Shown here: positions 5,656-54,690 of the stretch, one piece after another
How positions within the stretch are numbered: the first letter of the stretch is position 1
Layout of the letters: every line of letters starts with the position of its first letter
Virus record (IMG/VR): IMGVR_UViG_3300037458_000572
Length of the DNA stretch: 61,734 nucleotides
Reading direction: 5' to 3' (one strand)
Origin: a virus
The notes under the pieces: generated by a model
Told to the model about the DNA's origin: nothing
What the model saw: the letters and a program-made list of their open reading frames with translations, nothing else
Database searches by the model: none
Made by a program: the position numbers and the translations under genes

Positions 5656-5680
5656 GTGGGAGCGGCGTCCCGCCGCGATT
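5656..5680 (-). repeat. 25-nt GC hairpin motif, copy 1 (intergenic)
   Basis: The plus strand reads gtgggagcggcgtcccgccgcgatt. The minus strand reads ATCGCGGCGGGACGCCGCTCCCAC, with stem GCGGCG/CGCCGC. Confidence 0.85.
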
Positions 5681-5744
5681 AATTCTTTTTGGTTTATGTA
5701 CTTAGCCGCCGGGAACGCCACTCGCTCCCGGCGGCCAATCCACG

Positions 5745-6197
5745 CTACGCCGTCGCCACCATGTCGGTCTGGTTGGCCTTGGTCTCCGACAGCGGCTTAA
5801 CCAGCAGCACCGGCTCGAAGTGTCCTGCAGGGCCCGTGACCGGCGCCGTGGTGATCTGCACGACAACCTCGTCCCCGGCGTTCAGCACGGTGCCCTTGGC
5901 CACTTCGTCATAAAGCACCTTGCCGGCGGCGGTCGTGCCCATGGCGAACTCGCCGATGTCGCCGTCGCCGCGGCCAGAATCACTACCGGCGGTCACGCGG
6001 CGGTCCATCTTCACGACGCCGGGGGTCGACCCGGCGCATGTCTCGGTGATGATGAGTTGGGCCATCACCACCTCGCACTTGAACGGCACCAGGATCCGCG
6101 CGACATCGGCGGCAACCTGGTCCAGGTCGATTCCGGCCGTGTCGTCAAAGTCGATCTGCTTCACAACCGGCAGGGGGATAACGTAATTTTCAAGCAT
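5745..6197 (-). CDS. hypothetical protein (possible head decoration/cement protein, by position)
   Basis: 150-aa ORF immediately downstream of the capsid gene, followed by a strong hairpin GCCGCCGGGA...TCCCGGCGGC. Confidence 0.65.
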   Translation of the reverse strand: MLENYVIPLPVVKQIDFDDTAGIDLDQVAADVARILVPFKCEVVMAQLIITETCAGSTPGVVKMDRRVTAGSDSGRGDGDIGEFAMGTTAAGKVLYDEVAKGTVLNAGDEVVVQITTAPVTGPAGHFEPVLLVKPLSETKANQTDMVATA

Positions 6198-6272
6198 TTT
6201 ATTTCTCCTTGTCTATGCGGCGGCGGAATCTAACGCCGCCGGTTATTTGTTGTTCAGCCTTCAGCCTTCAGT

Positions 6273-7232
6273 CTAAGAGCTGGTCACCCGCACGATCTTG
6301 GCCTCGTAGTCCGAAGCCGAATCCCAGGTGGTCGCAAACGCCACGACCCCGTACCAGGCCACGGCCTTCTTGCGCCCGAAGTCCCCCTGGTAATTCGGGT
6401 TGACCCGCAGGTGGGGAAACTCCGTCTCGATTCGGCTGACAGCCTCTTCGCCGAAGACAACTCCCTCGCCGAGCACCGAGCCGGAGCCTACCCCATCGGT
6501 CAGCGCCGCCGTGTGCACGCACTCGACCAGGCGGATGCTTTCGCAGCGCCCGCACTCGGAGCGGAAAATCAGGTCGCCCTTGCGCAGGTACATATTCCAG
6601 CTTTCGAACCGGCGGTCCTGTTTGATTCCGCGCAGGCCCTTGGTGGAAAAAACGCCCACATAGTTTGATCCGTCGTGGAACGGGACATGGATGGTGTTCG
6701 CCATGTAGTCGCGGATCACCCCGAGGTGGTCGGCGTTGATATTCACCAGCGCCTGGGTGGATGGCGTCCCGTCGGTGTCCCACACGCCGCCGGTTAGGCT
6801 CGTCGGGATGAAGGCGACCTTTGCCGCCTTGAAAGCCGTCGCGGCGGCCTTGTCCATGGCGCGCTCCATCTGCCGCGTGAGCTGCCGCTGGGCGCCCTTG
6901 GCCGGGTCGAACTTGGATAGGTCCTGCATGAGCGACGTGTACTCGACTCCGCGCCCCCACTCCTGCACGGTGATCTGGCGCACGTCCATGCTGAGTTTAT
7001 CGATCGGGATGCGGGTGTCCTCTTCAAGCGCCGCGCTGGTGGGGTCGGAAAGCTCGTTGTAGTGCACGAGCGTAATGGACTCGCCCATGTGCTTCCCGAA
7101 TGTTTCTTCCTTGTCGGTGAACGGGACGAAGACCATCTTCTGTGCCGCGGTCTCTAGCAGCTTTCCCGATAAAGCATGATTTTTGTAGACGCCGGTTTCG
7201 GCGTCGTAGGTCCAAGTGGTGGTATTGCTCAT
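6273..7232 (-). CDS. major capsid protein (HK97-fold-like)
   Basis: 319-aa ORF directly after a scaffold-like gene and the portal. Size and sequence character are typical of HK97-type capsid proteins. A GC hairpin follows the stop. Confidence 0.75.
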   Translation of the reverse strand: MSNTTTWTYDAETGVYKNHALSGKLLETAAQKMVFVPFTDKEETFGKHMGESITLVHYNELSDPTSAALEEDTRIPIDKLSMDVRQITVQEWGRGVEYTSLMQDLSKFDPAKGAQRQLTRQMERAMDKAAATAFKAAKVAFIPTSLTGGVWDTDGTPSTQALVNINADHLGVIRDYMANTIHVPFHDGSNYVGVFSTKGLRGIKQDRRFESWNMYLRKGDLIFRSECGRCESIRLVECVHTAALTDGVGSGSVLGEGVVFGEEAVSRIETEFPHLRVNPNYQGDFGRKKAVAWYGVVAFATTWDSASDYEAKIVRVTSS

Positions 7233-7281
7233 TTCCTGTTTCCTCCGTCGATGTCGCCGGCGGCACTATGGCCGCGCCGGC

Positions 7282-8352
7282 TTATAATCGGCGGCGCTCG
7301 TTTGCCCTGGCGATCGCGTCTCCTAACCCGATTGGCCCGCCGGCGGAACCGCCCGCCTGGCCCTCCGGTGCGCTTCGTACCCGCCCGCCTTCGCCCATGG
7401 GCAGGTTGGATGCCTGCCGGGCGCGGGCCTGGATCGCCGCCTTGCGTTCCTTGTATCGTTCGATGGTCCACTCGATCTGCTCGTCGAGGGACAGGCTCCT
7501 TCCATTTTCGTCCCGCGTAGGTGTTGTCAGCGACACCCCGACCCAAAGCTCGTCGTTTGGGTCTATTGCCGCCGCATTGGCGCGCGAATCGATATACTCT
7601 CGCACCTGCTCGCGGCGGACCTGCTCGTCCGCGGGTACTGCCGGCGCTGCTGCCCGGGGCGCATCTGCTTCCGCAGTATAACCATACGTTGTTCCGGGAT
7701 CGCTTGCGGGTTGCTGTCTTTCGCCGCCCGCTTCCTTTTCCGGAACTGCGGAGGGGGAGGGTTCTGGCGATGGTGGCGCGATCGGCTTCCCGTCCTTCCC
7801 GACCGGGTTTATAGTGAATTTGCGCACATCGGAGTCCCTGCGCGCATATATCTGCGCTACCTTTTTGCGGTGCGCCGGGTCGTCCGGATCAAGCGCCTCG
7901 ATTTCTTCTAACGCCTTTTCCGTGCGCTCGGTCATGTACTCATCGATCGCATGGTCTACTGCTGATTGTGCGGCGCTTGCGATCTCCTGCTTTTGACGCG
8001 CGGCGTGCTGCGCCTCGTATTCCGCGATTTTTCTCCGCGCCTCGGCCGCTTCCTGCTCGGCCCGGGTCGCCTTGCCCTGCAGCTCGCGGTATCCGCGCTC
8101 GGCATCTTCGTGGGTTTTGAACCTCAAGGCCACGGGGGGGGCTGCCGCAGGCTCTTCCGCTTTCCCCGTTCCTGTTTGCGTTACGTTTTCATTGGCTTCG
8201 CCCGGGTGGTCCTCGGCTGGGGCCGGGGTGGCTGGTTCTTGAGTTTTCTCTTCGCCAGGGCCGGGAGCGGCGTCGGCATTCCCGAACGCAAAAATATCGG
8301 TGCCGGTCACGATTGGCGTGGTCTGGCTTGGTTGTGCTGCCAAATTACCCAT
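7282..8352 (-). CDS. scaffolding-like protein
   Basis: 356-aa protein, highly charged, with long coiled-coil-like E/A/R/K runs. It sits between the portal and capsid genes. Confidence 0.6.
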   Translation of the reverse strand: MGNLAAQPSQTTPIVTGTDIFAFGNADAAPGPGEEKTQEPATPAPAEDHPGEANENVTQTGTGKAEEPAAAPPVALRFKTHEDAERGYRELQGKATRAEQEAAEARRKIAEYEAQHAARQKQEIASAAQSAVDHAIDEYMTERTEKALEEIEALDPDDPAHRKKVAQIYARRDSDVRKFTINPVGKDGKPIAPPSPEPSPSAVPEKEAGGERQQPASDPGTTYGYTAEADAPRAAAPAVPADEQVRREQVREYIDSRANAAAIDPNDELWVGVSLTTPTRDENGRSLSLDEQIEWTIERYKERKAAIQARARQASNLPMGEGGRVRSAPEGQAGGSAGGPIGLGDAIARANERRRL

Positions 8353-8354
8353 GT

Positions 8355-8702
8355 TCAGCTTGCTTTCTCCGGCGTGGTCTCGCTTGCGAGGGCCGGGATT
8401 AGAAAGTTATAGCGCCTGACGTAGCGCCGGGCGGCTTCGCGCGCCGTTATGGACGCGGCGTCGATCGCCCTTAAAATATCCAGGCACGTCTTTGCCTGGG
8501 GGTCCTCATCCAGTATCGTCGCTATGCGCTGCTCCAACACCTGCACCACCTTGTCGGCTACCATCTGCGCGGCTGCCGACGCCGGAAGCCCCGCCATCTG
8601 CATCCGGTCCATCATCTCGTCGGCGTCCGTGCGCTTTTCGTCGCGCCCGAACGCGGGCGACATGGGCATTCCTGTGATGATGTCTACCGGCGATCCGCTC
8701 AT
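8355..8702 (-). CDS. hypothetical protein
   Basis: 115-aa ORF whose start overlaps the portal stop by 4 nt. Confidence 0.5.
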   Translation of the reverse strand: MSGSPVDIITGMPMSPAFGRDEKRTDADEMMDRMQMAGLPASAAAQMVADKVVQVLEQRIATILDEDPQAKTCLDILRAIDAASITAREAARRYVRRYNFLIPALASETTPEKAS

Positions 8703-10630
8703 TGTCCGCCCTCGTCGCGCGGCTTGTTTCCGGCTCCGGGACTTGATTTTCCAATCCCGATGTCGTTAAGAAGCTTTACCAATTCAGACACTTGCGCCAT
8801 GCCTTCGGCCTGCTCCACCTTTTTCTGGTCCTCGGCCGCTTGCGCTTTCATTTCCGCGTCGATCTGCATGGCCTTTTCGTCGCTCGCCACAATGCCCTCG
8901 TCGGTGAGGTTGGTCCTTGTTTCGAGCGCCTTCAGCATCTTATAGGGCTCCAGGTAGGGCGCGAACTGCGGCTGCGCGCAAAGCGGGATGAACACCTGGG
9001 TTAAGTGCTGCAGCGTCTCGGCGCCCTTCATCAGCGCCGAAACGCCGCTGACGTGGAACCTTCCCGACAACGCCGGAAGCCCGTTGACCCCGTTCGGACG
9101 GCGCGGGTCCGGCGCCATCATCATCTGCTCCAATGGCTCGCGGCCGAACATATCAGCGTAGTCGGTGTATCCGGCGAAGGCTTCTATGACTTCCTGCGCC
9201 GCGGCCAGCGCTGCGATTGCCCCGGATTCGACATTGGCGCCGATCAACTGGAACACGCCCAGCCCTTGGTCGAGCATTTGCTGGCTTTCGCGCCAGGTAA
9301 CATCCTTGCGGTATCCCGGGAGCCCCTGCACCGCGTCGGTGATAAAACTTCCGCGCTGGAATATCTGGTCATGGTACTGCTGGTTGGCGAGGATCGAACC
9401 GGTAACGTCGCGGCGGATGCTCTCGCGTACCGCCTGCTGCCCGTTGACGCTTTCGCGCGTGAGATACTTCTTGCCCGGCCAGTCCTCGACATCTCGCGGA
9501 TCCACCAACTGCTCGACGCACACCTCTTTGGGCGGGTTCACCAGCCACGAAAGCGCGTCCTCGAACAGGCATTGCAGGTTGCACATGGCCTCCCACACCG
9601 TGACCACGCTTTTCAAAAGTCCCCGCCCGCCGTACCCGAGCACCGATGGAAATGGCGAAAATGACACCCCTGGCCACCGTAGCCGGCGGTAGGGGACCGC
9701 TTTGGGCTCTTCGATTATCCGCCCCCCGCACACCGTCAACTGCGCCCGCGGCAGCACCACCTCCCCGCGCTTGTCTAGCACCGTGCCGTACATTTCCTCC
9801 ACCAGGTGCAGCGTGCGGAAGTCGCTGCGGCGGTGCACCTGTCTCTTGCGCGCCTCGATCGCGTCCTTGGTCAGGAATGGGTCGTTGGGTGATGCCGTCG
9901 ATTCCGACGTGTTGCGCACGCGCTCGATGTCGAAATACTTGCCCCGCGCCTCTCCGTCCTTCAAAACATGCCAGTCAAGCCATTCGCGGTGGATCCAGTA
10001 AAGCCCGCCCTGCGGGTCGCGGCGGGGTGCGTCCGGGTCGCGCAGGATTTTCCAGGGTTCGATCAGCGAGTACTGCAGCCCGCGACCTGGTATCCAGCGG
10101 GGGATGATTTCCATGCTGACGCCGACGGCAAGCGCCATGGTTACCGCGTCGGCGAAGGCGGTGACGAAATTTCCGTGCTGGTCGTCGTTCTGTATATCGA
10201 GTACGGTTTTCCAGAACTGCTTCGCCGTCTCCGACTGGTCGTCGTGGATGGTCAAAAAATCAGGCGAGAACGCCTTTTTTATAACCGCCGCGCCGAACTG
10301 CACCGTCGCAAACGGCTTTGGCACGATAACCCGCGATTGCCAGGCGTCTTTATTGGAGTACGAATACGGCTCTTCCTCGTTGTAAACCCGCCAACAATGG
10401 TCCTGTTGCCGCCGCAGCTCATCGGTCGCCTGCACCGATGTCTTCACGCAGTCGGCCACGTAATCTACGATCGACTTCTCCTGTTCGACCGCGATCCGAC
10501 GCGCGGCGTCCTCGCGCTCGGCCGTCTCCTGGTCGTCAATTTGCTGTGTGGCGTACTCAGCGCGGTCAACGCGCCTACGCGCCTCCACCAACTCGTCCAT
10601 CGGATCGCGTGTTATTTCGACCTGAGGCAT
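8699..10630 (-). CDS. portal protein (by size and position)
   Basis: 643-aa ORF downstream of terL and upstream of the scaffold and capsid genes. Confidence 0.7.
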   Translation of the reverse strand: MPQVEITRDPMDELVEARRRVDRAEYATQQIDDQETAEREDAARRIAVEQEKSIVDYVADCVKTSVQATDELRRQQDHCWRVYNEEEPYSYSNKDAWQSRVIVPKPFATVQFGAAVIKKAFSPDFLTIHDDQSETAKQFWKTVLDIQNDDQHGNFVTAFADAVTMALAVGVSMEIIPRWIPGRGLQYSLIEPWKILRDPDAPRRDPQGGLYWIHREWLDWHVLKDGEARGKYFDIERVRNTSESTASPNDPFLTKDAIEARKRQVHRRSDFRTLHLVEEMYGTVLDKRGEVVLPRAQLTVCGGRIIEEPKAVPYRRLRWPGVSFSPFPSVLGYGGRGLLKSVVTVWEAMCNLQCLFEDALSWLVNPPKEVCVEQLVDPRDVEDWPGKKYLTRESVNGQQAVRESIRRDVTGSILANQQYHDQIFQRGSFITDAVQGLPGYRKDVTWRESQQMLDQGLGVFQLIGANVESGAIAALAAAQEVIEAFAGYTDYADMFGREPLEQMMMAPDPRRPNGVNGLPALSGRFHVSGVSALMKGAETLQHLTQVFIPLCAQPQFAPYLEPYKMLKALETRTNLTDEGIVASDEKAMQIDAEMKAQAAEDQKKVEQAEGMAQVSELVKLLNDIGIGKSSPGAGNKPRDEGGQ

Positions 10631-10654
10631 TTTTTATTTTTTTCCCTTAAACCC

Positions 10655-10906
10655 TTACACTCCGGCTCCGGGAGCCTTGGGGAATATCCGGTCGAAGTTC
10701 TTCCGGTATCCACCCTCGCGCTCCGCCGGTTTCCAATCGCTCGAATGCGACGGGCAGCTATGTGAACATTTATGCGTGTCTGGCTCTCCGTCGTGGCCTT
10801 TCGGGTGGTCCGTAACCGCGCCGCAGCCGGTGCATTTAAACACCTGACGATTGTTTTTTCTCGACCCCTCGCGCATTTCCCAAAAACGTGAATACTTTCC
10901 CATCAA
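10655..10906 (-). CDS. small Cys/His-rich (zinc-binding-like) protein
   Basis: 83-aa ORF containing CTGC...HKCSHSCPSH, between terL and the portal. Confidence 0.5.
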   Translation of the reverse strand: MMGKYSRFWEMREGSRKNNRQVFKCTGCGAVTDHPKGHDGEPDTHKCSHSCPSHSSDWKPAEREGGYRKNFDRIFPKAPGAGV

Positions 10907-10908
10907 AC

Positions 10909-13081: not shown

Positions 13082-13485
13082 GCACCAATCGTATCACCTG
13101 TTTTTAAGATTAAATGCCGTTCAAAACCGGTGGTCATGATTGGCCGCGATTTGCACGCTTGAATGGCACTTCAGGAGTGGTAAAGTTGCGTTTGTTGCAA
13201 AAAAAGTTCTTGACAAGGTTTAAAATAACGCCTTGAACCCGCCGCCCGATGTTTTTTTAAGGGCACGTTGGTTGAAAGTTTGAACGACCCCATGCGCTTG
13301 GAGTCTCATGGGGGGAGGGAGTCCCGGTCGAGCGGTTTCTGTTCGGCGGACGGCACCCTGTGGATGGTTGGTGGGTCGGTCGGTCGGAGTCAATTTCGAA
13401 AGGACCGAAGGCCGAGGGGCGGCCGGCCGACGATCGAACGGCGACCGATTGGTAGGTGGATTGGATGGCCTTGACCGCTGCCAGA

Positions 13486-13577
13486 TGGTTGGACCTCGAT
13501 CCCGGAGATCCCGGTTCAGGCATCGACCACCTGGTTGGACCTCGATCCCGGAGATCCCGGTTCAGGCATCGACCACC
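13486..13577. repeat. 46-bp perfect tandem direct repeat x2, each unit with two GATC sites
   Basis: tggttggacctcgatcccggagatcccggttcaggcatcgaccacc is read twice, back to back. Confidence 0.9.
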
Positions 13578-13630
13578 TGGACGCCGTGTGACCTGGCGAT
13601 CGTTTTTATGGCAGGCAAGGGGGTGGTCGA

Positions 13631-17043: not shown

Positions 17044-19710
17044 TCATAATATCGAGGGCTTCAACCCTATCCCTATAAAAGCCTGCCTGCGCGCGTTGCC
17101 ATCGTCCATTTTACCTTTTTTGACCTGCGGCAGATAGTTGGTGAGGCTATGGTAGAATTTTATCTTGCCCAGCGCGTTCAACCCACTTTTATCGGCCCAC
17201 GACCTGTAATCCTCGTACAAAAATTCGGCTACGGCCTTATGCCCATTCCCCACGTCGGCCCGCTCCGCTACCCACATCAGGAACGGGTTCATCTCCTGCA
17301 AGAATTTCTGTCGCTCTTCCTCTGCGATCTGGCTTTCAGCGAAACCCTTCCGGCGGATCAAGTCCACCGCGCCCTCCAACATCCACAAAAAAATACCGTT
17401 GCGTTCGTCTAAGAGCTTTTCCAGTAGGTCTACGTCCTTCTTCTCGCCCTCGAACCGCTGATCAAAACGCAAAATCAACACCTTCCGCGCGAACCCATAG
17501 CTTTTGTCAACGATGTTAGGCACCTCGTTCAAGGCAAAACAAAACTTCGCGCTTGGCCAAAAGTCTATGCGCTGCTTATACTTATGTTCCCCGCTCACCA
17601 TGTCGCCAGAAATGCACTTCTTCAAAACGCTTATCGCGCTGGGCTCCCTCGTCGCCATCTCCGTGCACGTCACCAGGAGCTTATCCTGCAGATATGGGAT
17701 GTTAAAACTCCGCGCCAGGTCGTCGAGGGACAGCTCTATCGTGTTTTCCTTGCCCAATAGGTTGATGAACACCTTTAGCATGGTGCTCTTGCCGTTTGCG
17801 CCCGGGCCGACCATGAACGCCGCCCGCTCGAACTTGCATGTCGGCAGCAGCAAATACCCTGCAAACTGTTGCGCAAGCTGGATCTTGTCATCTCCATCGC
17901 AGTTTTTACCGTCCTGCATGCACTCGCGCCCCTCCGGGAAAACCTCCCACAAGAACTTGATCCAGCGGTTGGCATCCGCATCCGGGTTGAACTCCACCGG
18001 CAACTGCGCCCGGCTTCCATAACCTGGGTCGTGCGGCTTCAATATCGAGCCTAAATCCACATCCTTTCCTGCCCTAACCAGTTCCTCCAGGTCGATCACC
18101 CCATTTTTTAGGTTGATCAAGTAGGGTCGGCGTACCCATTGTGTTTCCAATCGGTTCACCATGGCGCCCAGCACCTGCATGGCGCTCTTGATCCAGTCCG
18201 CCTGCACCCGGTCCTTCAATGCCTGCACGATCGTCTGCTTGATCGTATCATCGTGGAATCGCCGCCAGCAACCATCCGTGTAGCGCCAGAACACCCCGTC
18301 CGTGCAAACAAGCGGGCTGAAATATGTCGCCAAATACTTCGCCATGCTCTCCAATACGAACGCCGGGCGCCCGCCGTGCCCCCGCACCGTAAAAAACTCC
18401 ATGGGATCGATCTCGGTCGGCGGCGGCAGCGTCGGCACCCCCACCTCAACGTGGGTCGGAACGATCTCGATCTCGTGCAGCAGGCCGGACCCAAGGGGCT
18501 GATCCTCTGGTTTCCAATTCGGATCGTATCCTTCGCACCACTCTTTTAGACTCGCGTCCCCGCTGATCGCATACTTGGCATCCTGCCAGGTCTTGCCCTG
18601 GCAGCTGTTGTGCGAGCAGTGATAGAGCAGCTTCCCGCTCGTTTCCTGGCAGATCGCCGCGTCCTTGGCCTTGTGCTCGGGGTTGAACACGCACTCGCGC
18701 AGGTTGTAACGCTTGATCGCCCCATGATCGTCAACGCTGTGCAGCTCGCGGCCAAAATGCGCTAAGTATTCGGCCACCTTGAGCGGGCCGAGCCCGTTCG
18801 GGCGCTGGTTTGTCCGCTCGGTGTTCGCCTTCCGGCTGCGCTTTGCCGGAACCTGCTTGCTTTCTTTTTCTACCCCGGGTGGTTTGGCGCCGGGGGGCTC
18901 TTTGCCTTCCGCCAGACCCGCCAGCCGCTCCAGCACCGCAAGCGGCGTAACCGGCACCCGGGCGAACTCATCTGGCGCATCCGCAAAGATGAAACTCCGG
19001 CGGTGCGGCCTGTCGGCGCTTGCGAACCCCTTGCGCGCAGTCGTGCCGTACAGTTTCCAGATCCGCGACGGGTTGAAAACGGACAGGTCGAACTTGACGC
19101 GCGGGAACTCCTTGCTTAACCGCGCCTCGATTGCGTGCAGACAACGGCGCACAAGCGAGTCGCTCTTGTACTCTTTGCTCGTGAATATCTCCGGGGGAAT
19201 ATCGTCGATGCGGTAGTTGAGATGATAGCCGTTCCCCGAAAGCGCCTTGATCGGTTCGGCCAACCCCATCTCGCGCAGCCACGCCGCGCACGCCTTGGCG
19301 CAATCGAGCGTCGGCGACATCTCATCTTCGGTCGCCGAAACCCCGACCGCGTGATCGCTGTCGAAGTCCACCAGCAGCCAACGCACCGCTTGGATATGGT
19401 GGTCGGCGGTCGAAGGCCGTTTTTTTGCGGGTGTCACCAGGCGGTTTGGAGCGCGCTGGAAATGGTCACGGTGGACAAGATTTGGGGTGAAATAAATACC
19501 AGGCGCCTCGGACGCCTCCAGCGCCAGGGCCGCGCGGCCGAAGTCATCGGCGTTGTCGAAGTATCCGAACACCACGGCATCCTCGCCGGTGGCGGAACGG
19601 GCGAACCCCTCCCACGCCTTGTTTCTACCTGAAACACCGATCGCCCGGATCTCGGTAACTTCGCCGGGGGCAAAGAAAAGGCGGTATGTCTGCTTTATAT
19701 CGGTAGGCAC
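17044..19710 (-). CDS. bifunctional primase-polymerase / SF3 (D5/P4-alpha-like) helicase
   Basis: 888 aa with a GTG start. AEP motifs are LLVDFDSDH and SGNGYHL. A Cys/His cluster CQETSGKLLYHCSHNSC is present, and the Walker A is GPGANGKST. Confidence 0.9.
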   Translation of the reverse strand: MPTDIKQTYRLFFAPGEVTEIRAIGVSGRNKAWEGFARSATGEDAVVFGYFDNADDFGRAALALEASEAPGIYFTPNLVHRDHFQRAPNRLVTPAKKRPSTADHHIQAVRWLLVDFDSDHAVGVSATEDEMSPTLDCAKACAAWLREMGLAEPIKALSGNGYHLNYRIDDIPPEIFTSKEYKSDSLVRRCLHAIEARLSKEFPRVKFDLSVFNPSRIWKLYGTTARKGFASADRPHRRSFIFADAPDEFARVPVTPLAVLERLAGLAEGKEPPGAKPPGVEKESKQVPAKRSRKANTERTNQRPNGLGPLKVAEYLAHFGRELHSVDDHGAIKRYNLRECVFNPEHKAKDAAICQETSGKLLYHCSHNSCQGKTWQDAKYAISGDASLKEWCEGYDPNWKPEDQPLGSGLLHEIEIVPTHVEVGVPTLPPPTEIDPMEFFTVRGHGGRPAFVLESMAKYLATYFSPLVCTDGVFWRYTDGCWRRFHDDTIKQTIVQALKDRVQADWIKSAMQVLGAMVNRLETQWVRRPYLINLKNGVIDLEELVRAGKDVDLGSILKPHDPGYGSRAQLPVEFNPDADANRWIKFLWEVFPEGRECMQDGKNCDGDDKIQLAQQFAGYLLLPTCKFERAAFMVGPGANGKSTMLKVFINLLGKENTIELSLDDLARSFNIPYLQDKLLVTCTEMATREPSAISVLKKCISGDMVSGEHKYKQRIDFWPSAKFCFALNEVPNIVDKSYGFARKVLILRFDQRFEGEKKDVDLLEKLLDERNGIFLWMLEGAVDLIRRKGFAESQIAEEERQKFLQEMNPFLMWVAERADVGNGHKAVAEFLYEDYRSWADKSGLNALGKIKFYHSLTNYLPQVKKGKMDDGNARRQAFIGIGLKPSIL

Positions 19711-30011: not shown

Positions 30012-30396
30012 CGCACGTAATGGACGGGAGCATCCCCGCCGCGCGCTCTATTCTCGGAAGACTCAACTCCAGCCGTTGCAGGATAAGAGCTAGCTGGGTT
30101 GCCATACGGGTAACATCCGATGCCAGCGCCGTATTTTTTGTCAGCAGATCCCTAAACTTCTCGCGGCCGTCTTCCAGGTCTTGTATGATTTGCCGGTGCT
30201 GCAGCACGCACATCTCTTTGTCTATTTTGTCGTCATCGAGCTGGTCAAGACTTCTCTGCGTGGCTTCAACGGCGGCTTTAAGTTCAGCCCGCACAGATCT
30301 CAACTGGTCCAGCATGTATTTTATCGCTCCTCCAAAAACCCCCGTGCAACATATCCCCGTCACGATAGCCGCCACCACCTGATTTGTCTCACCCAT
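29998..30396 (-). CDS. N-terminal TM + coiled-coil protein (spanin-like architecture)
   Basis: 132 aa with TM helix VVAAIVTGICCTGVFGGAI followed by a long charged helical region. Confidence 0.5.
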   Translation of the reverse strand: MGETNQVVAAIVTGICCTGVFGGAIKYMLDQLRSVRAELKAAVEATQRSLDQLDDDKIDKEMCVLQHRQIIQDLEDGREKFRDLLTKNTALASDVTRMATQLALILQRLELSLPRIERAAGMLPSITCDDGR

Positions 30397-36700: not shown

Positions 36701-39700
36701 AGGGCGACTTGGATATTTTTTCGTACTCGGCAAGGTCGGCTTGCTCTTTTTTGATATGTTCTTTTAACTCGGCTGGGCGCTTGAAAATACCGTCGATGCT
36801 GTTCTCAAGCGAACTCATCAGCCCGCCGATCGTGTTGACCGATCGCTTAATCAGGAAGTCATCGCCTTTGCGGCCGAAACCTACTGCGATGTCGGGTGCG
36901 TCTCTTAGATTCCACTTTTCTTCTTTTTTATTGTTCCACGCATCCCAATCGACACCGTAATCAGGCCGGACACCGACCTGCACGCGCTGGCCGTGCGCCG
37001 TGAACTGAATATGCGCCGGAGTTACGTTGTTGACATACTCTTTCCATTCTTTCTTACCAATTAACTGCTTCGGGTGCTTGGCGTTCTCGGCCGCCACGAA
37101 TGCCGCCAGGGCTTCGTTGACATCCTTGCGCTCGGCCGGCTTGCCGTTCAGGGTGAACTCTTTGAGTTTGCCGCCGGGTACAGTCTTTTCGAGCTCGGCG
37201 GCGGTCTTTTCGGCGTCTTCTAACGTCTTTTCGGTTTCCTCGATCCGCGCCTGGGTCCTTTCGGTATTACGCCGGGCCATGGAGACTTCATGCTCCCAGC
37301 GCAGCTTCGCCCGCCGCAGCTTCTTGGCCTTCAACTCGACGTCGGTTTTTTCGAATACCAGCGGATTGCCGGAAAAAGCCGCCATCATTTCGGCGAGACT
37401 CGCCTGTTCTTCGGATAGCGGGTCGTCGAACTCGCGGCTCTCGATGTCTCCGACCAGCATCTGGTCGATGAACCGCTGCTTTTTGGTGAGCCGGTCGTAC
37501 ATCACCGAATCAAGCGTCGCGCGAACACCGTAGTTAAAGATCCGCACCTTGGGGTTGGTGTTTCCCTCGCGCACGATCCGTCCGTTCCTCTGCTCGATGT
37601 CCATCGGCCGCGGCGGAACGTCGACGTGGTGGGCCGCGATCAAAAGATCCTGCATGTTGACGCCGACCCCAAGCTTCTGAGAACTGCCGATGATCACCCG
37701 CACCGCTCCGGAGCGCACCCGGTCGAACAGCGCCTCGCGCGCGGAGTCTCCTTTCGCGTCCGTCACCAGCGCCACTTCGGATTTCGGGATGCCCTTGTCG
37801 ATCAGCTTCTGCCGCAGGTCTTCGTGCGAATTGAAAGTCTTGGTGCTGTCGTTCTGGCTGTCCAGGAAAACCACCTGCGTCGATCGGTTTCCGGAGGTTC
37901 CCTGCCAGATCTCATGGACCTTTTCGACCACCTTGTTGAGCTTGCTGTCCGGGTGGTCCTCGTAGGAGGCAGATACCAGGCGCATGTCGACCGCAGCCTT
38001 CTTGGCCAGTCCGAACAGCACTACAGGTACGTGGCGGCTTTCCCTCTTTTCCTTGCCGGTCAGATGGTCCCATGCTTCGCGCGCGGCTCTAAGCTCGTCG
38101 ATGAACCGGTTCAGGGAGGGCGTGCGTTCCACGGTCACGAACTCGGGCTTGCCGCCGGCCACGTCCGGAAGCCGCAGGCCGGCGTCCCGGGTAAGCTGCA
38201 CGTCGGCCGCCGTGCGCCACATGGTCAATAGCTCGGTCCCGTTCACGTACTTGTTGAACCGTTCGACCTCTCGATAGGTGCCGGTCTCGGTCTCTTCGAG
38301 GGCGGTCTGCGTCTGCCCGAACGTGGCCGCGAAATCGTCGAACAGGTCTACCCCGTAATCCTCCAGCAGGTCCGGGCGCACGTAGCGGATGATCGTCCAC
38401 AGCTCGGCCGTCGTGTTGCTGATCGGGGTCCCGGTCGCCAGGATTACGTTCTTCCCGCCGGTCTTCTCCTGCACGTAGCGGGACTTCATCAGCAGCGACG
38501 TCGACCGCTGGGAGGCCCCCTGGTCGATCCCTTTCACGCGCTGCATCTTGGTGAAGAATTCGCTGCGCTTATAAGCATGCGCCTCGTCCACCAGAAGGGC
38601 ATCGATCCCCATCTTCTCGAAGTTGAGCGCCTTGTCCTTGCGGCGGTTGAGCGCCTTCTCGATCCGGTCCTCTTTGCGCTTTTTCAACGCTTCCAGGTCT
38701 TTGACGGTGAAACTCTTCTTGCCCTCTTCCGCTTCCGCGTCAGTGATCGCCTCCTCGATCATTTTAATTTGTTCGCGGATGAACCCGATCTCGCGGTCCA
38801 CGTCGTCGGCGATCGCATCGAAAAAGCTGTGCGGCACCACCACGGCGTCCCAATCTCCGGTTGCGATCTGCGACAGCAGCCGCTGCCGGTAGCGCGCCGC
38901 GCGCTGCTTCTCGTCCGGGATCAGCACACGTGCGCCGGGGTACAGCTGGTTGAACGCCTTGCGGTACTGGCCGATCGTGCTGTTCTGCACCACGATCATG
39001 GGCTTCTTGGCGGTTCCCACCCGCCGCATCTCCATGGCGAGCGATATGAAGGAATAGGTCTTTCCGGTGCCGACCCCGTATGCGAAGATGGTCGACTCGC
39101 GCAGGCCTCGCGCCACGAACCGTTTTTGCAGCGGCCGCAGCTTGATGTGCGGATTGGCGCCCGGGAAGTGCTCGATCTTTGGCGTTTCGGTTTTGCGGAG
39201 GACGTGCCCGTTCTTTTCCTCGTTGTAGACCTCGGCGAGCTTGTCCTTCCACTTTTCGCTCGCGCGCGCCCAGCGCAGGAATTCCTCCTGGATTTCCTCC
39301 TGCTTGGCCTGGGCCGCTTCGGTCGCTTCGTCGTCGCGGGCGGTCCTTTTGCTACCGTTTTCGTCCTCGTAGGTGTAGGTGATGACCGGCCGCTTCATGT
39401 TCAAAGCGGACAACACAAGATCATCTCCACCGCGCCCGCCGGCGCCCCAGGTTTCGTTGTTCAAGGCTGTGGCGTAACCGTCCTCGACCGCCAGATGCCA
39501 GCTGCTTTGCTCTGAATTTTTGCTGTAGGTCGCTGTCGCCGTGACCCCCATGGTCTCTTTCAGGAAGTCGGATATCGCCTCGCCCGGTATCCAGGGGGTG
39601 CCCAGGCGGAAGTGGATGAACTCGATGTCGACCGGATCCGGCTGCACGGCGGAAAGCGCTTTCACGTTGCTGGCGTACTCCGGGTTGTCCTCTGCCGCGG

Positions 39701-47496: not shown

Positions 47497-47499
47497 GTA

Positions 47500-47856
47500 T
47501 TAAGCCTTTGCCACTACTTTTTTGATTCTGCCGTCCGCGTCCCGCTCGATCGTGAAGTCCCACCGCCGCGCGCGTTCGGGAACTGGAGGCGGCTGAACCG
47601 CCTTGATGGCCGTGGCGATCCCTTTGCCGATCCGCTCGATCGCCGCCGCGGTTTCGCTCCGGGTCTCGGCGATCACTCCGGCCAGGGTCTCCTGGGTTGC
47701 TGCCAGCTTGCCGAGCACCCGGACCGTGGCCTTATGCGTCTCGGCGTGCTCGTCGGGGCTCTCCTTTTCAATGCGGCGGCTTTCGTCAGGGAGGTGCTTG
47801 GCCTTGCCAGACACCCGCATCAAATTCGCATCCTTGTCGCTCAGATATTTAGGCAT
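47500..47856 (-). CDS. hypothetical protein
   Basis: 118-aa ORF overlapping the upstream gene's end by 16 nt. Confidence 0.5.
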   Translation of the reverse strand: MPKYLSDKDANLMRVSGKAKHLPDESRRIEKESPDEHAETHKATVRVLGKLAATQETLAGVIAETRSETAAAIERIGKGIATAIKAVQPPPVPERARRWDFTIERDADGRIKKVVAKA

Positions 47857-50800
47857 TCCAATATCTTCCTGGCCATGGCGGTCTGCTCGGAGTTTTCGGC
47901 CAATGCCGTGTCCGCCCGCTCCTTTATCATCATCGCCGCACCGGACTCCGAATACGCCTTGATCTCCACCATTATTTCAGACAGCGGCGGTGCCTGCTTT
48001 TCCTGCGCGGGAGCGGGTTGCGGCTGCAATTCGAAGCTGTCGGCCGGCAGTCCATTTTCGCCCTTGCCTTCGATCTTGACGTACTCGCGGCCGTCCTCGA
48101 AATAATCGTCGATTACCCTGCCGGCGAACCCGACATTCAACCCGCCGGCCGCCGTCGGCGTCACCATGTCGCCGTATTTAAACTTGAGGTCTTTCGGCGC
48201 CGGCGCCTGTGATTCTAATCCTTCAGCCTTCGGCTCTCCCTCCGCTTCTCCCGCTTCAACAACCTGATACGCTGCCGCACCTTCAACAGGCTCCGCTTTT
48301 TCCTGTTCACGCTGTCCCCTCTCGAAGTCCTGGCGCGCTTCTTTAGCCGCCTCGATGAGCGCCTGCTTCCGCGTCCACTTCGCCGGGTATCCCGGTCCCT
48401 TTTCGCTGCGAATCCCGTTTTCAGTACGCCGGTAGTAGAAACTCCCCGTGCCGGCCTGCTGCACGGAGTAATCCACCCCTGCGATCCGCGCCGCCCCGCG
48501 GCTAATCATCTTCCCCGCCCAATCGGCCATGTCCTTAGCCTTGGATCGGGGGGGTTGTTTCCCGGTTATCGTTGCCGCCACATCGGTCTTGGGCTTTTCC
48601 TGTGGGAGCGGCGTCCCCGCCGCGATCTCTTCCTCAACCTGCGGAACTGACGGCCTGCGGTTCGGGGCCACCCTCCCCGTCAACACCTCGAAGGCGGCCC
48701 TCGGTGGTTCGCCAGCGGCGCCCTTATCGTTTACTCCACCCTCCCGTACCGGCTGCCCCGCGATCGCCTCACCACGAGGCTCTAATGCAGCCGATTCTTC
48801 GGACGGACGGCGAGATGGTGCTCGCCGCCCGGTTAGCGCCTCGACCGCGTTGGTTGCCGGTTTTTCAACTAAATCCGGGTACTCGGCCAATACCGTCGGC
48901 GGTACGGGCTTGCCTTCGCCAATCGCCAGCGCCACGATGTTCTTATGCCGCTGGTTGGCGCGATCATCGATCACGTTGCCGGCCGATACGCTTTCAACAT
49001 ATTCCCGCCGCGTCATCTCCCACGGTTCTTTTACTGGCAAACCGGCGGCTTCCGCGGCCGATGGAAACGTCCCCCCCTGCACGCCCTCGGTTACGATCTC
49101 ATCCTGAACGGCCTCTGACGTAGCCGTAGGCGCCTGTTCAATGGGTGCCTGCGACGGCTGCCGCATGGGCGCACGCCGCCCGGTGAGCGCCTCGACCGCG
49201 TTGGTTGGCGGTTTATCAACCAAATCCGGGTACTCGGCGAGGACTTTGGACGGGACGGGATTGCCGTTTTTAAGCGCTTTTTTGATGTAATCTTTGTGCG
49301 ATACTGTTATTGCATCAGCGTCGGTATATTTGGCTGTGTCTATCGTTCGGATCACGAACGAACTACCGTCAGGAGAACGCACCGACAAATAATTATTGCC
49401 ACGATTTACAGTTGAAGTTTCGGCATATTCCCGCCGCGTCATCTCCCACGGCTCTTTCACTGGCGAACCGGGGGCTTCCGCAGCCGGCGGCAACGCCCCC
49501 CCCTGCACGTCCTCGGCAGCGATCGCTGCGGGGGTGGCCCCTGTTGGTGGCTGCTGTTCAATTTCAACGGGTGCCTGCGACGGCTGCCGCATTGGCGCTC
49601 GCCGCCCGGTCAGCGCCTCGACCGCCGATATTGCGGGTCTTGCCTCATCCTGCGGGAGCGGCGTCCCCGCCGCGATCTCTTCCTCCGGCGCTACCGACGG
49701 CTGCCGGCTCGGGGCCACCCTCCCCGTAAAAATCTCGGCCGCCGTCTTTTTCCGCTTTGGCTTTTCGGCCGGCGACGTAGCCGCTGCCGTCGTATCTTCC
49801 CCGGCCGCCCCGACCGGCGCCGCATCTCCCGAACCCTGAACCCCGAACCCGTGGTCCTCGTCGATTTCTTCAGAAATCGACTTGCCCTGCAGCACCGCCA
49901 TTGTCGCCCCGGTGCGCCAGCGATCCGCCAAGCCCGGGTCCGTGCGCGCGATCTCGTCGTAAACCTCACGCACCGCCCCCAGCCGTTCCTCGGGGTCCGC
50001 GTCCTTGTCGGTTATCAGGCTCCTTACCTGGTTCGAGCGCGCCTTGTGAAGCCCGCCGCCGAGCGCCCCGAAAATCAAACTGGATACGGTGATCTGCCCG
50101 AAATTGTCCTTTATCGCCTGCCAGAATGTATCCTCCGATGCCCCGGTTGACCGCTGGACTTCGGCCTGTATGGCGGTGTTGGCCAACTCGCCGGCCTCTT
50201 CGGACGCGGCGATGCCCAAGCCTTTCTTGGCTGCCGCCGAATACGACGACTGGATTACCCGCTTCGCGCTGTTCTTGGTCGCTTCGCGCAGCGGCTTGGT
50301 AAAGCCTCCGCCGCGTAGGAGCAGGATGTCCAGTACGTCGGAAAAAAACTCGGAGCCTGTTTCGGATAACCCCTCCATCACCGCCGCGTCATGCGCCTGG
50401 TCCTTCGGAACACCTTTTTTTACATACTCGTCATACGCCTTGTCGTACTGCGCCATTCCGAACAGCGGCGCCCCTGGAAGCTGCCCCGCGGCAGCCGCCG
50501 CCAGTTTCCCGCCGCCGCGCGCCGCCGCGCCGGCGACCCCCGCGGCCATGCTCGGGGCTGTCACCGCCAGGCTTTGCACGGTTGACTCGGCGGCCCCGGT
50601 CCAGTCGCGCCGCCAGCCCGGAGAACTCGCTTCTTTTGACACGGGCAAGGCGTCGTCTCGAAAGCTCGATATATCCTCGGCTATCTCGCGCGACTTGCCA
50701 TCATCCACCCCAACAGCCTTGTCCAGCGCCGCCAGCGCCCGGGCATAGGTCTCGGGAGCACCGACGATCCCACGCGCAACCGATACGCCGAGATCGGTCA

Positions 50801-51014
50801 ACACCCCACGGGAGGGCGGCGGCGGCCGGTGCGGCTCAAGGTTTATCTCGATGAAATCGTTTTTTACGGATGAAAGTTCGTTTTCGGGAAGGTCGGAAAA
50901 CTTGGCGGACAGCTTGTCGTCGAAATACCCGCCAAGCGCCCGCTGCTTGTCGATCGTTGAAAGTGCCTTGAAATCAGGATCGGCGAACCACTGCTGCACA
51001 ACCTTGTTCAACAT
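47841..51014 (-). CDS. large internal-virion/ejection-like protein with tandem repeat modules
   Basis: 1,057 aa. Repeated modules are AVEALTGRRAP.R.PS, VKEPWEMTRREY and PVP..VLAEYPDLV. There are two copies of EEEIAAGTPLPQ. Any function is inferred from size and position only. Confidence 0.75.
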   Translation of the reverse strand: MLNKVVQQWFADPDFKALSTIDKQRALGGYFDDKLSAKFSDLPENELSSVKNDFIEINLEPHRPPPPSRGVLTDLGVSVARGIVGAPETYARALAALDKAVGVDDGKSREIAEDISSFRDDALPVSKEASSPGWRRDWTGAAESTVQSLAVTAPSMAAGVAGAAARGGGKLAAAAAGQLPGAPLFGMAQYDKAYDEYVKKGVPKDQAHDAAVMEGLSETGSEFFSDVLDILLLRGGGFTKPLREATKNSAKRVIQSSYSAAAKKGLGIAASEEAGELANTAIQAEVQRSTGASEDTFWQAIKDNFGQITVSSLIFGALGGGLHKARSNQVRSLITDKDADPEERLGAVREVYDEIARTDPGLADRWRTGATMAVLQGKSISEEIDEDHGFGVQGSGDAAPVGAAGEDTTAAATSPAEKPKRKKTAAEIFTGRVAPSRQPSVAPEEEIAAGTPLPQDEARPAISAVEALTGRRAPMRQPSQAPVEIEQQPPTGATPAAIAAEDVQGGALPPAAEAPGSPVKEPWEMTRREYAETSTVNRGNNYLSVRSPDGSSFVIRTIDTAKYTDADAITVSHKDYIKKALKNGNPVPSKVLAEYPDLVDKPPTNAVEALTGRRAPMRQPSQAPIEQAPTATSEAVQDEIVTEGVQGGTFPSAAEAAGLPVKEPWEMTRREYVESVSAGNVIDDRANQRHKNIVALAIGEGKPVPPTVLAEYPDLVEKPATNAVEALTGRRAPSRRPSEESAALEPRGEAIAGQPVREGGVNDKGAAGEPPRAAFEVLTGRVAPNRRPSVPQVEEEIAAGTPLPQEKPKTDVAATITGKQPPRSKAKDMADWAGKMISRGAARIAGVDYSVQQAGTGSFYYRRTENGIRSEKGPGYPAKWTRKQALIEAAKEARQDFERGQREQEKAEPVEGAAAYQVVEAGEAEGEPKAEGLESQAPAPKDLKFKYGDMVTPTAAGGLNVGFAGRVIDDYFEDGREYVKIEGKGENGLPADSFELQPQPAPAQEKQAPPLSEIMVEIKAYSESGAAMMIKERADTALAENSEQTAMARKILECLNI
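48603..48627 (-). repeat. 25-nt GC hairpin motif, copy 4 (in frame, IAAGTPLPQ)
   Basis: The plus strand reads gtgggagcggcgtccccgccgcgat. Confidence 0.85.
49652..49676 (-). repeat. 25-nt GC hairpin motif, copy 5 (in frame, IAAGTPLPQ)
   Basis: The plus strand reads gcgggagcggcgtccccgccgcgat. Confidence 0.85.
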
Positions 51015-51054
51015 TATGGATTGTCTCCAAAAATAGGCTCTTGGTCGTCATGCG

Positions 51055-52668: not shown

Positions 52669-52683
52669 GTCCGCTGTCCTCCG

Positions 52684-53328
52684 CTAGTTGGCGTATAACC
52701 CTTGTCGCCGCTGCCGCTTCTTTCGTTCTTCGCCGTACATCCAATCTGCCGCCGATTGTATTTTTTGGCCTGTTTCGGTTTGGTTGTCCTCTCCGAACGC
52801 ATTGGCGAAGTCCGCCGCGCCGTCGAGCGCCGCGCCGATTTTCTTACCGATCTTGTTGCGGGCGTAGTTCTGCATGGCGTTTTTTATATATTCGCCGATA
52901 TGCGGATCGGCCTTCTGTGCCGATGCGGACGCCTGTTTACCGTATTCCTGACCGCCGAATACGTCTATTTGCTTTTCAGCAGCTGCGGGTGCACTCGATG
53001 CAACGGCGGGCTGCGATATACCGCCGCCACCGCCAAGTTCAGTTGCGGTGCCCGAAGCTCCGGACTCTGCCGCGGCGCCCGAAGCTCCGGACTCTGCCGC
53101 CGCGCCGCCCGAAGCTCCGGACTCTGCCGCCGCGCCGCCCGAAGCTCCGGCTGCTCCGCCGGCTATGGCGCCGATGATGCTTTTAGCTCCGATCGGGTGG
53201 TCCTGGCGGTTCAATTTGACTTCGCCGCCTGGTGGCGGGGTGTTCATGGCCTCTGTTTTTAATTCTTCATGCTCCGCCATGCGCTGGTCGATTTTTCTTT
53301 TTGCTATTGCCGCCAATACTTGCCACAT
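52684..53328 (-). CDS. Gly/Ala/Ser-repeat protein
   Basis: 214 aa with a central AAESGASGG repeat region encoded by a DNA tandem repeat. Confidence 0.6.
   Translation of the reverse strand: MWQVLAAIAKRKIDQRMAEHEELKTEAMNTPPPGGEVKLNRQDHPIGAKSIIGAIAGGAAGASGGAAAESGASGGAAAESGASGAAAESGASGTATELGGGGGISQPAVASSAPAAAEKQIDVFGGQEYGKQASASAQKADPHIGEYIKNAMQNYARNKIGKKIGAALDGAADFANAFGEDNQTETGQKIQSAADWMYGEERKKRQRRQGLYAN
53051..53160. repeat. 27-30-bp tandem repeat (about 3.7 units)
   Basis: cccgaagctccggactctgccgc(c/g)gcg(ccg) read three times, plus one partial unit. Confidence 0.85.
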
Positions 53329-53343
53329 ACCGCGCCCCTCCGC

Positions 53344-54045
53344 TTAAAGGCTAAAACTCCATCCGCTCGATTTGCCTTGGTTCATCGGACGCATGCCCGC
53401 CTCGTTGGCGTTTATGGCGTTGCCATACAGCCCTTGTGCTCTGTCCGCCGCGCTCTTGACCGTGTAGCCGCCCTCGGTTGCGGCCGTGTTGTAAGGCGTG
53501 TCCTGTATGCCCGATCGCGCAGCCATGGCAGACTTGAGCTTGCTGAACGTCTCGTCGCGCGCCTCGGTCCTGGCGCTCGCCCGAGCCCCCGATATGGACC
53601 GGGCGCGGTCCATGGCGATCGCTTTCATAAGGTTCTGATGCCGCGCGCCGGAAAGATTGACCCCCGTCCGCGACAACCCGCGGCGCACGCTCTCCGGCAC
53701 GTTGGCGTATTCGGACACCACGCCCGCCTCGGCTTCGGCCTCGCGCTGCGCAACGTCAACCGGAGTCGCCGCCTCTTTATAGAACGCTTCCATTGCCGGC
53801 GCCGATGCCCGCATTTCGGACATCAACTGTTCGTTGGTGAGGTCTTTAAGCGGCCGGGACCGCTCCAGATCCAGCATGCCCTCCGACATCACCTTGCGCT
53901 CATAGGGCGTATAGACCTCCCGCGCCAGGCTCCACTGCTCTTCCGCCATCTGCTGCTGGCGCTCGGCGACCCCAGCCATTCGCCGCGAGGCTTGCGGGTC
54001 AGTGGGATACTGGTTTGTGGTGCTCGACTGCCTTCCACCGCCCAT
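53344..54045 (-). CDS. hypothetical virion-module protein
   Basis: 233-aa ORF with SD AAGGAGAT upstream. Confidence 0.65.
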   Translation of the reverse strand: MGGGRQSSTTNQYPTDPQASRRMAGVAERQQQMAEEQWSLAREVYTPYERKVMSEGMLDLERSRPLKDLTNEQLMSEMRASAPAMEAFYKEAATPVDVAQREAEAEAGVVSEYANVPESVRRGLSRTGVNLSGARHQNLMKAIAMDRARSISGARASARTEARDETFSKLKSAMAARSGIQDTPYNTAATEGGYTVKSAADRAQGLYGNAINANEAGMRPMNQGKSSGWSFSL

Positions 54046-54048
54046 TTT

Positions 54049-54690
54049 TTATATCTCCTTCTTCGTGGGAGCGGCGTCCCCGCCGCGATTTTGTTTTTCT
54101 TTTGTTTCCGTTTTTTTACACCGCGCCTGCGTCATGCAGGACATAACCCCGTCCACCGCGCAGTTAGCGTAAATGTCGTATAGCATTCCTGGGACCGTCC
54201 CGAGGCGCTCCATCCCAACAGCCTTGGCGAACTTGACGGCGGAAATATTGTTGACCGGCGTTATGCCCAACAAAACACCCACCAGCGGCAGGCGCCCTTC
54301 TTCGCCGTCCGCGGCCAGTATGTATTCCAGTACATGCCGACCGATCATCTTGGTCTCTGAGCCCCAAAATTTTTTAAATATCGCATGATGCAAGTGCGCT
54401 GCATTACCAATAAAATCCCTGATCCAAAAAACCCCTACCATTTCAGCGCCTGCCGGTTCGTCCCTTCCCGCCCAAACCGTGAAGAAAAAAACCCCAGGGG
54501 TCTTCACCAGCCGCACGAACTCGCGCGCATCCGTCACCATGCCGTCGAAAAACAGCCACCGCACCGACCCTTCGGACCTCAACCGCTCAAACCACCCTTC
54601 GATTTCCGAATCCCTGAAGCTCGGCACCCCGTCATGCACCGCGTAAGGCACTATCTGGTATTCTCGGCTCATGTTTCCTTCCTGAACCAT
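54049..54690 (-). CDS. GNAT-like acetyltransferase (tentative)
   Basis: 213 aa. The segment GITPVNNISAVKFAKAVGMERLGTVPG resembles the GNAT C-terminal beta-alpha region; this is from memory only. Confidence 0.5.
   Translation of the reverse strand: MVQEGNMSREYQIVPYAVHDGVPSFRDSEIEGWFERLRSEGSVRWLFFDGMVTDAREFVRLVKTPGVFFFTVWAGRDEPAGAEMVGVFWIRDFIGNAAHLHHAIFKKFWGSETKMIGRHVLEYILAADGEEGRLPLVGVLLGITPVNNISAVKFAKAVGMERLGTVPGMLYDIYANCAVDGVMSCMTQARCKKTETKEKQNRGGDAAPTKKEI
54065..54090 (-). repeat. 25-nt GC hairpin motif, copy 6 (read in a different frame at the 3' end of a CDS)
   Basis: The plus strand reads gtgggagcggcgtccccgccgcgatt. Here it is translated as NRGGDAAPT. It lies 20 nt upstream of the next start codon. 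Confidence 0.85.

Follow-up and report, generated by a model that had tools for sequence, protein, structure and literature searches.

Bacterial REP sequences, on one strand and mostly in one reading frame, in the protein linkers of a temperate podophage

Introduction

By published description, repetitive extragenic palindromic (REP) sequences and the REP-associated tyrosine transposases (RAYTs) whose genes they flank are bound to the chromosome and inherited vertically, horizontally mobile DNA carries no RAYTs, and the replicative unit is the inverted REP doublet (REPIN, REP doublet forming hairpin) (Nunvar 2010, PMC2817692; Bertels & Rainey 2011, PMC3116915; Bertels 2017, PMC5581495). Here we analyze a 25-nt hairpin repeat in viral DNA of 61,734 nt (IMG/VR virus record IMGVR_UViG_3300037458_000572; "the window" means this whole stretch), the genome of a temperate, Bcep22/Gervaisevirus-like podophage. 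The hairpin proves to be a RAYT-associated bacterial REP, a known element in a new setting.

Other described systems bear on such a setting. Rickettsia palindromic elements (RPEs) are reportedly inserted in frame in protein-coding genes, and we know of no transposase that serves them. Transposition of the insertion sequences IS200/IS605 is said to proceed on single-stranded DNA, in an orientation tied to replication direction. Promoters of the T7 type and those of the N4 virion RNA polymerase are conserved one-strand motifs of ~23-25 nt, some within open reading frames (ORFs), those of N4 being hairpins with 3-nt loops.

Results

The hairpin repeat and its copies in the window

The consensus of the repeat, ATCGCGGCGGGGACGCCGCTCCCAC, is read on the minus strand, which is the coding one for nearly every gene of the window. 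Five copies lie within one mismatch of it (34745-34769, 42107-42131, 48602-48626, 49652-49676 and 54065-54089), against a chance expectation of 0.00 from 100 dinucleotide-preserving shuffles of the window. A sixth copy (5656-5679) is 24 nt long, with a 1-nt loop deletion (GGGA to GGA), and for that reason escaped substitution-only searches. The 6-bp stem is the predicted minimum-free-energy RNA fold (-10.9 to -13.2 kcal/mol), the loop is of the GNRA type in most copies, and an Rfam scan of the window gave no family match to the hairpin. In its canonical orientation, the reverse complement GTGGGAGCGGCGTCCCCGCCGCGAT, the repeat reads GTGGGA-GCGGCG-TCCC-CGCCGC-GAT, with a GT[A/G]G head, a 6-bp GC stem and a pyrimidine loop.

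All copies are on the minus strand, and four of them are translated in frame as IAAG/RTPLPQ, two in each of two large proteins. In the polyvalent protein of 3876 amino acids (aa) (ORF 30714-42344, minus strand; SNF2 helicase, LPD3), the perfect copy at 42107-42131 encodes aa 72-80, and the copy at 34745-34769, with loop AGGA and the reading GIAARTPLPQG, encodes aa 2526-2534, in a variable linker flanked by conserved blocks. In the 1057-aa virion-module protein (ORF 47841-51014, minus strand; no family match) both copies lie in low-complexity linkers: the one at 48602-48626 is perfect, is read in frame as EEIAAGTPLPQE and stands at a mosaic junction, and the one at 49652-49676 has the tail CCCGC and is read in frame as EEEIAAGTPLPQD. 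The fifth copy (54065-54089), perfect and with loop GGGA, falls in the last 14 codons of ORF 54049-54690, where it is read in another frame as RGGDAAPT; it ends 19 nt upstream of the ATG at 54045 (gene 53344-54045), and the ribosome-binding site is also just downstream of it. The copy at 5656-5679, with its 3-nt loop GGA, is intergenic between ORF 5745-6197 and ORF 5136-5600, and the same GGA-loop variant is intergenic in the related phage contig L002 (1573-1596).

Two further minus-strand stretches are plausible relics of REP copies. At 8263-8274, in another frame inside ORF 7282-8352, stands the exact 12-mer GACGCCGCTCCC of the 3' half, which has 7 matches in the window versus 0.05 expected; more doubtfully, GCGCGGCGGGGATGCTCCC at 30026-30045 retains the 5' arm, the loop and TCCC, with the 3' arm truncated. 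A preliminary description of the window, made from its letters alone, had listed six copies in one orientation, and its coordinates were right within 1 nt; it had also correctly placed four copies in frame in the two large proteins, one between genes upstream of 5136-5600, and one in a different frame shortly before a start codon. The two half copies it pointed out are credible as relics, short of proof.

The intergenic region that holds the 5656 copy (5600-5745) has other hairpins nearby, namely two more GC-rich ones, GGCCGCCGGGA...TCCCGGCGGC and GGGCGGC-TAAAAA-GCCGCCC, and its terminator-like matches are on the plus strand only.

Identity as a bacterial REP

The layout of the hairpin is that of the P. 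putida REP TGTGGGAGCGGGCgTGCCCGCGAA (Nunvar 2010, Table 1, PMC2817692). When bacteria were scanned at one genome per species, the exact 22-mer was present in more than 120 stretches among the matches listed, on both strands, the carriers among those matches being Chromatiales, Rhodocyclales, Pseudoxanthomonas, Alcanivorax, Desulfobacterota, Verrucomicrobiota and others; one Thiohalocapsa metagenome-assembled genome (MAG) had at least 25 exact copies, and Desulfosarcina widdelii PP31 is one of the complete genomes with the REP. An inverted partner lay within 120 nt for 85 of 153 bacterial copies (background, 0.03 per 120 nt), as in REPIN doublets. Across the fetched loci a perfect 6-bp hairpin followed the GT[AG]GGA head in 496 of 1286 cases, versus 1.3 expected, and these 496 hairpins comprised 23 distinct perfectly paired stems, that is, compensatory variation. 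ORFs adjoining copies in three loci (L068, L063 and L024) matched both Pfam Y1_Tnp and the RAYT equivalog NCBIfam NF047646, the latter at 127-133 bits where the score cutoff is 80 bits, and the RAYT gene at L068:3854-4390 (127 bits) has inverted copies on both sides (3800+/3873- and 4404+/4504-).

The sequence thus has the short (~20-40 nt) GC-rich palindrome with a GT[A/G]G head at the 5' foot of the hairpin, the multiple bacterial copies, the RAYT gene between inverted copies and the compensatory stems of the REP family, to which it belongs. Its location in the phage is atypical: REPs are extragenic, as the repeat is in bacteria, whereas five of the six window copies lie inside ORFs. A REPIN is a unit of two inverted REPs ~20-60 nt apart; no inverted partner was found in the window or in L124, L125, L002 or L259, so the phage copies are REP singlets, not REPINs. 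Neither are they autonomous IS200/IS605 elements, there being no Y1 transposase in the window or its phage relatives: Pfam and PHROGs scans of the window found no Y1_Tnp or RAYT, nor did a six-frame hidden Markov model search of the window and nine phage loci.

The exact 22-nt REP core spans at least five phyla, in isolates as well as MAGs (L004-L123), with Gamma- and Betaproteobacteria, Desulfobacterota, Verrucomicrobiota, Armatimonadota and Aminicenantes represented; this breadth is hard to reconcile with strictly vertical, lineage-specific REP/RAYT evolution.

The REP was absent from 50,697 GenBank phage records and nearly absent from plasmids; beyond the window, its occurrences in IMG/VR were confined to two contigs, L001 and L002. 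L001 is an unrelated 37-kb viral contig (GC 45%) in which the REP (in the stretch 4371-4446) is intergenic between co-directional genes, runs opposite to transcription and is followed by seven T, so that it looks like an intrinsic terminator; a heptamer array stands alongside. We also observed a homologue of the phage 887-aa protein (46% identity) at L257:10001-13665 (GCA_053489895.1, GC 39%), on a contig that looks like bacterial chromosome and carries leuS-like and tat genes, where a Y1_Tnp gene is immediately adjacent on the opposite strand.

Copies in related phages

The positions of the repeat vary between the window and its relatives. L002 is syntenic with the window at ~70% amino-acid identity, and its orthologue of ORF 54049-54690 has a REP within a 21-aa insertion in mid-protein, whereas the window has its copy in the C-terminal tail; the spot in L002 equivalent to window 54065 holds a (CGGTTCA)n array and no REP. 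Among homologues of the 1057-aa protein the REP peptide stands at differing places or is missing, P0003 being without the 49652 copy. L125 has two copies in common with the window, and the window 49652 copy is orthologous to L125:3235; a third L125 copy and the next one bracket, as two direct REPs, a 213-nt module at the place where the window has the single 48602 copy and no module. Identity between the window and L125 is 85-97%, and drops to non-homologous for ~300 nt exactly from the 48602 copy.

The 42107 copy marks the point where the N-terminal homology of the giant protein ends in all relatives, and at the equivalent site L124 has a heptamer array and L259 a decayed REP with 3 substitutions. 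L259 has no REP at the linker equivalent to 34745; BLAST places a 9-aa gap there, in a linker too diverged for a call at the nucleotide level. Four relatives in which the neighbouring 887-aa protein is 73-88% identical (L252, L254, L258 and L260) have zero copies in ~22 kb each, as do the more distant L253, L255 and L256, again in ~22 kb each.

At the other extreme, L124 has nine copies in 22.7 kb, eight of which are one identical variant, ATCGCGGCTGGAAAGCCGCTCCCAC (variant 2), whose stem GCGGCT/AGCCGC is a compensatory swap of G-C to T-A. Variant 2 is also a widespread bacterial repeat and mostly extragenic there (123 of 137 bacterial copies had no spanning long ORF), with no reading-frame preference. 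In L124 and L259 all variant-2 copies are perfect (8 of 8 in L124, 2 of 2 in L259) and all variant-1 copies imperfect (1 of 1 in L124, 4 of 4 in L259), one of the imperfect ones being a hybrid of the two variants. Independent JGI and NCBI assemblies (L249-L251) have identical copies at identical sites. A synonymous test on the two REPs that the window and L125 have at orthologous positions gave 2 changes at 14 four-fold sites versus a 36% background (p ~0.07), which is suggestive only. The differing sites, the compensatory variant or outright absence in relatives, together with the lack of a phage RAYT, indicate host-type repeats acquired lineage by lineage.

Two unusual arrangements were seen. 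The hybrid REP at L259:8151-8175 combines a variant-1 5' arm with a variant-2 3' arm, leaving the stem mismatched, and at L124:11570-11627 two different REP variants follow one another with an 8-nt gap (PLPQENIAAGTPLPQ; copies at 11570 and 11603). Both arrangements resemble recombination products, formed within a REP or between REPs.

Strand and frame bias

Throughout the clade all copies are in the sense orientation (~18 independent sites, two-sided binomial p ~8e-6), and of the 15 coding sites 14 begin in frame 1, that of IAAG[T/K]PLPQ (p ~6e-6), the peptide usually being flanked by acidic residues. Bacterial singlets between co-directional gene pairs were 9 sense and 7 antisense, with no frame bias. 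None of the six reading frames of the REP has a stop codon. The phage copies are sharp-edged, with purine-rich and non-homologous flanks, which has the look of a discrete inserted unit rather than of a duplicated segment; neither a consistent target-site duplication nor a conserved insertion target was found at them. We considered and rejected a -1 frameshift stimulator, for which no consistent upstream slippery heptamer was present.

REPs are confined to the modules for virion and ejected proteins, with none in the regulatory and replication region of the window at 13-30 kb. Plus-strand GC skew is negative throughout the window (1-61734) and AT skew mostly negative, the sense strand being purine-rich throughout.

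Genome context and heptamer arrays

The window corresponds to JGI contig Ga0392393_0000118, rotated. The phage genes recognized in it include those for a major head protein (6273-7232), a portal or adaptor (8699-10630), a D5-type primase of ~888 aa (17044-19710) and an internal virion protein (54982-56913), besides terminase, integrase-family and repressor genes. A second ORF of ~888 aa had no family match, a tRNA scan of the window found nothing, and Pfam and PHROGs scans found no RNA polymerase domain in it. We found no close relatives of the window among GenBank phages, no relatives of the 1057-aa protein in IMG/VR, and no prophage relatives of the window among the bacterial REP loci.

The two proteins that carry in-frame REPs have further peculiarities. 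In the 1057-aa protein a KEPWEMTRREY-containing domain is internally duplicated (~390 nt absent from L125), and the short peptide (A)LTGR(R/V)AP.R.PS is repeated immediately ahead of or behind REP copies. In the 3876-aa ORF, aa 1-68 (window 42141-42344) form an N-terminal domain conserved in all relatives, while the domain families annotated beyond it vary from one relative to the next (ART-PolyVal/RadC in L252, LPD38 in L253, LPD39 in L256, SNF2/LPD3 in the window), a pattern suggestive of a shared leader or anchor ahead of interchangeable cargo.

A second small repeat of host type accompanies the REPs, namely minus-strand heptamer arrays, (GGGTTCA)n at 4494-4523 and (GGGTTCR)n at 49828-49850, the latter within the 1057-aa ORF and ~150 nt upstream of the 49652 copy. 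Further sense-strand arrays occur at L124:2241, 7012-7046 and 18709, L125:3869, L001:4377 and L002:4882, often directly adjoining a REP. At two orthologous sites an array replaces the REP (L002:4882 for window 54065 and L124:18709 for window 42107). Bacterial and metagenome loci have the heptamers as inverted intergenic pairs, sometimes beside REPs (L137, L172).

Discussion

We consider it likely that the phage copies are host-type REPs of the RAYT class, acquired lineage by lineage, rather than a conserved phage signal or peptide. The preliminary description had argued that conservation acts on nucleotides and not on the peptide, and this is borne out, the same 25-mer being found in non-coding phage DNA, in another frame and in bacterial extragenic DNA; covariation of the stem, for which it had proposed a search, is present both in the bacterial variants and in phage variant 2. 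It had also named a ubiquitous host REP devoid of positional bias as a finding that would count against it: a ubiquitous host REP it is, but one with strict strand bias and near-strict frame bias in this clade, both absent from the bacterial copies.

For the route of entry and the causes of the strand and frame biases we infer the following scheme. REPs would enter the phage genome in a host that has a cognate RAYT/REP system, during lysogeny or replication, arriving singly, as units with sharp edges, through a process specific to one strand, most likely the action of a Y1 transposase on single-stranded DNA. They would survive only where ~9 extra codons or a hairpin can be tolerated, that is, in intergenic spacers and in the purine-rich interdomain linkers of virion and ejected proteins, where they are translated. 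Copies that match the current REP type of the host would stay perfect and those of another type would decay, and direct repeats in the same frame would then act as junctions for the in-frame gain or loss of modules. The frame itself would be fixed by selection, possibly together with a need for compatibility in recombination.

Several points weigh against this account. The loci offer neither a clean insertion event nor a close pair of empty and filled sites, and the inserted unit may be 25, 26 or 27 nt. REPIN theory holds that the doublet replicates and that singlets are its decaying remnants (PMC3116915), yet the phage singlets are identical. At least three of the six open REP frames encode bland peptides, so that simple tolerance of the peptide does not obviously predict a ratio of 14:1. 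That the copies match the REP of the host is a presumption. Lastly, the absence of the REP from the GenBank phages and its presence in just two more IMG/VR contigs make passive invasion of prophages clearly uncommon, and this rarity hints at something specific to this clade.

The best-surviving alternative is that the REPs have been co-opted as recombination joints, portable and frame-locked crossover sites, possibly processed by a host RAYT, by which the modules of virion and ejected proteins could be swapped, gained or lost in frame, with the single frame and strand as a rule of compatibility. This would add a layer to the acquisition of host-type REPs without excluding it. The L125 module between two direct in-frame REPs as against the lone REP of the window, the break in window-L125 homology exactly at the 48602 copy, the position of the 42107 copy between the conserved N-terminal domain and the variable modules, the L259:8151 hybrid, the back-to-back L124 copies and the frame lock at 14 of 15 coding sites all point this way. 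However, these linkers are hypervariable anyway, and REPs and breakpoints may coincide through shared tolerance, the two effects not being separable; the giant proteins of the REP-free close relatives L252, L254, L258 and L260 are mosaic too; a 25-nt stretch offers little length for homologous recombination; and no recombinant pair with both parents was found. We hold such co-option to be possible but somewhat doubtful.

A peptide signal, with IAAG[T/K]PLPQ serving as a motif for protease cleavage, packaging or ejection and its nucleotide identity incidental, would explain the shared frame in the virion-module genes of several phages and would suit the acidic residues that usually flank the motif. 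We think it improbable in view of the fixed synonymous positions, the identity of the copies to bacterial extragenic repeats, the same sequence and strand in intergenic copies (window 5656, L002 1573, L124 2207), the orthologues that have the motif elsewhere or not at all, the close relatives that have none, and a loop deletion at L259:8106 that puts the second half of the repeat in another frame. The preliminary description had kept a peptide role as an option; the intergenic copies, the presence and absence among orthologues and the fixed synonymous sites speak against it as the primary one, and the frame bias leaves room for a secondary constraint at the peptide level.

Still less probable is a cis-regulatory element of the phage, whether a promoter read by an RNA polymerase of the phage or its virion, a site for RNase processing or for stability, or an antitermination hairpin like boxB. 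A conserved 25-mer with sharp edges, on a single strand, co-directional with the genes, mostly with a GNRA-type loop and in one case (54065) just upstream of a ribosome-binding site and ATG, is what such an element could look like. Yet the window encodes no recognizable RNA polymerase, most copies are in mid-ORF at positions that vary among relatives, close relatives do without the element, and the sequence, which matches nothing in Rfam, is a high-copy bacterial repeat found in both orientations and flanking RAYT genes. Two suggestions of the preliminary description, a phage-specific site for RNA processing or protein binding and a fossil of gene fusion, find no support either, the hairpin being a bacterial REP whose positions are not conserved among related phages. 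We had entertained a CsrA-binding hairpin, given the GGA in its loop and the csrA gene of Ralstonia phage UAM5, and dropped it once the bacterial REP identity was clear; a Pfam scan of the window ORFs listed no CsrA-family domain. Chance similarity or an assembly artefact, conceivable for a metagenomic contig, can be set aside given the zero matches expected in shuffles, the copies within long conserved ORFs and the same sites in independent JGI and NCBI assemblies.

A bolder combination builds on host-type acquisition: a host RAYT acting on one strand would both install the REP singlets and keep them perfect, so that they are not passive debris; the REPs would serve as frame-locked, portable crossover or excision sites through which modules of virion and ejected polyvalent proteins are inserted, deleted or exchanged in frame; and the REP variant carried by a phage would record its present and former host lineages. 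That these three propositions hold jointly seems to us unlikely.

A phage clade with up to ~1 identical REP singlet per 2.5 kb, on one strand and in one frame, is at odds with the picture of REPs as described, and offers a natural system in which to study how REPs move, on which strand RAYTs act and what a single REP does. The REP variant may serve as a host fingerprint for uncultured phages, in which the pattern of perfect and decayed copies may record host switches, and the findings point to a sequence-level route for the in-frame shuffling of modules in giant ejected proteins. Should none of these readings hold, the clade nonetheless gives a clear example of phage protein linkers that tolerate selfish host repeats.

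Comparison with known systems

Of the systems introduced at the outset, the promoters of T7 and N4 had come to mind with the 3876-aa ORF and the two ORFs of ~888 aa, which proved to be an SNF2/LPD3 protein, a D5-type primase and one protein with no match; we rejected them for a window that has no phage RNA polymerase, in which the motif positions are not conserved in relatives and the sequence is that of a bacterial REP. RAYTs belong to the same superfamily as the transposases of IS200/IS605, and a strand-specific mechanism on single-stranded DNA would yield a single orientation such as we observe; the phage element differs in having no internal transposase gene, and neither a target site nor an insertion intermediate was seen. 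With RPEs the phage copies share the form of a small palindromic repeat inside ORFs that is translated as a tolerated extra peptide, but RPEs measure ~100-150 bp and belong to the chromosome of an obligate intracellular bacterium, whereas the phage unit is a RAYT-class REP of 25-27 nt with strict strand and frame. The closest system is REP/REPIN-RAYT itself (Nunvar 2010, PMC2817692; Bertels & Rainey 2011, PMC3116915; Bertels 2017, PMC5581495), with which the repeat shares the GT[A/G]GGAGC head, GC stem, short loop and GCGA tail, the compensatory stems, the high bacterial copy number, the inverted doublets and the adjacency to RAYTs, and from which the phage copies differ in being identical singlets, mostly intragenic and translated, on one strand and in one frame.

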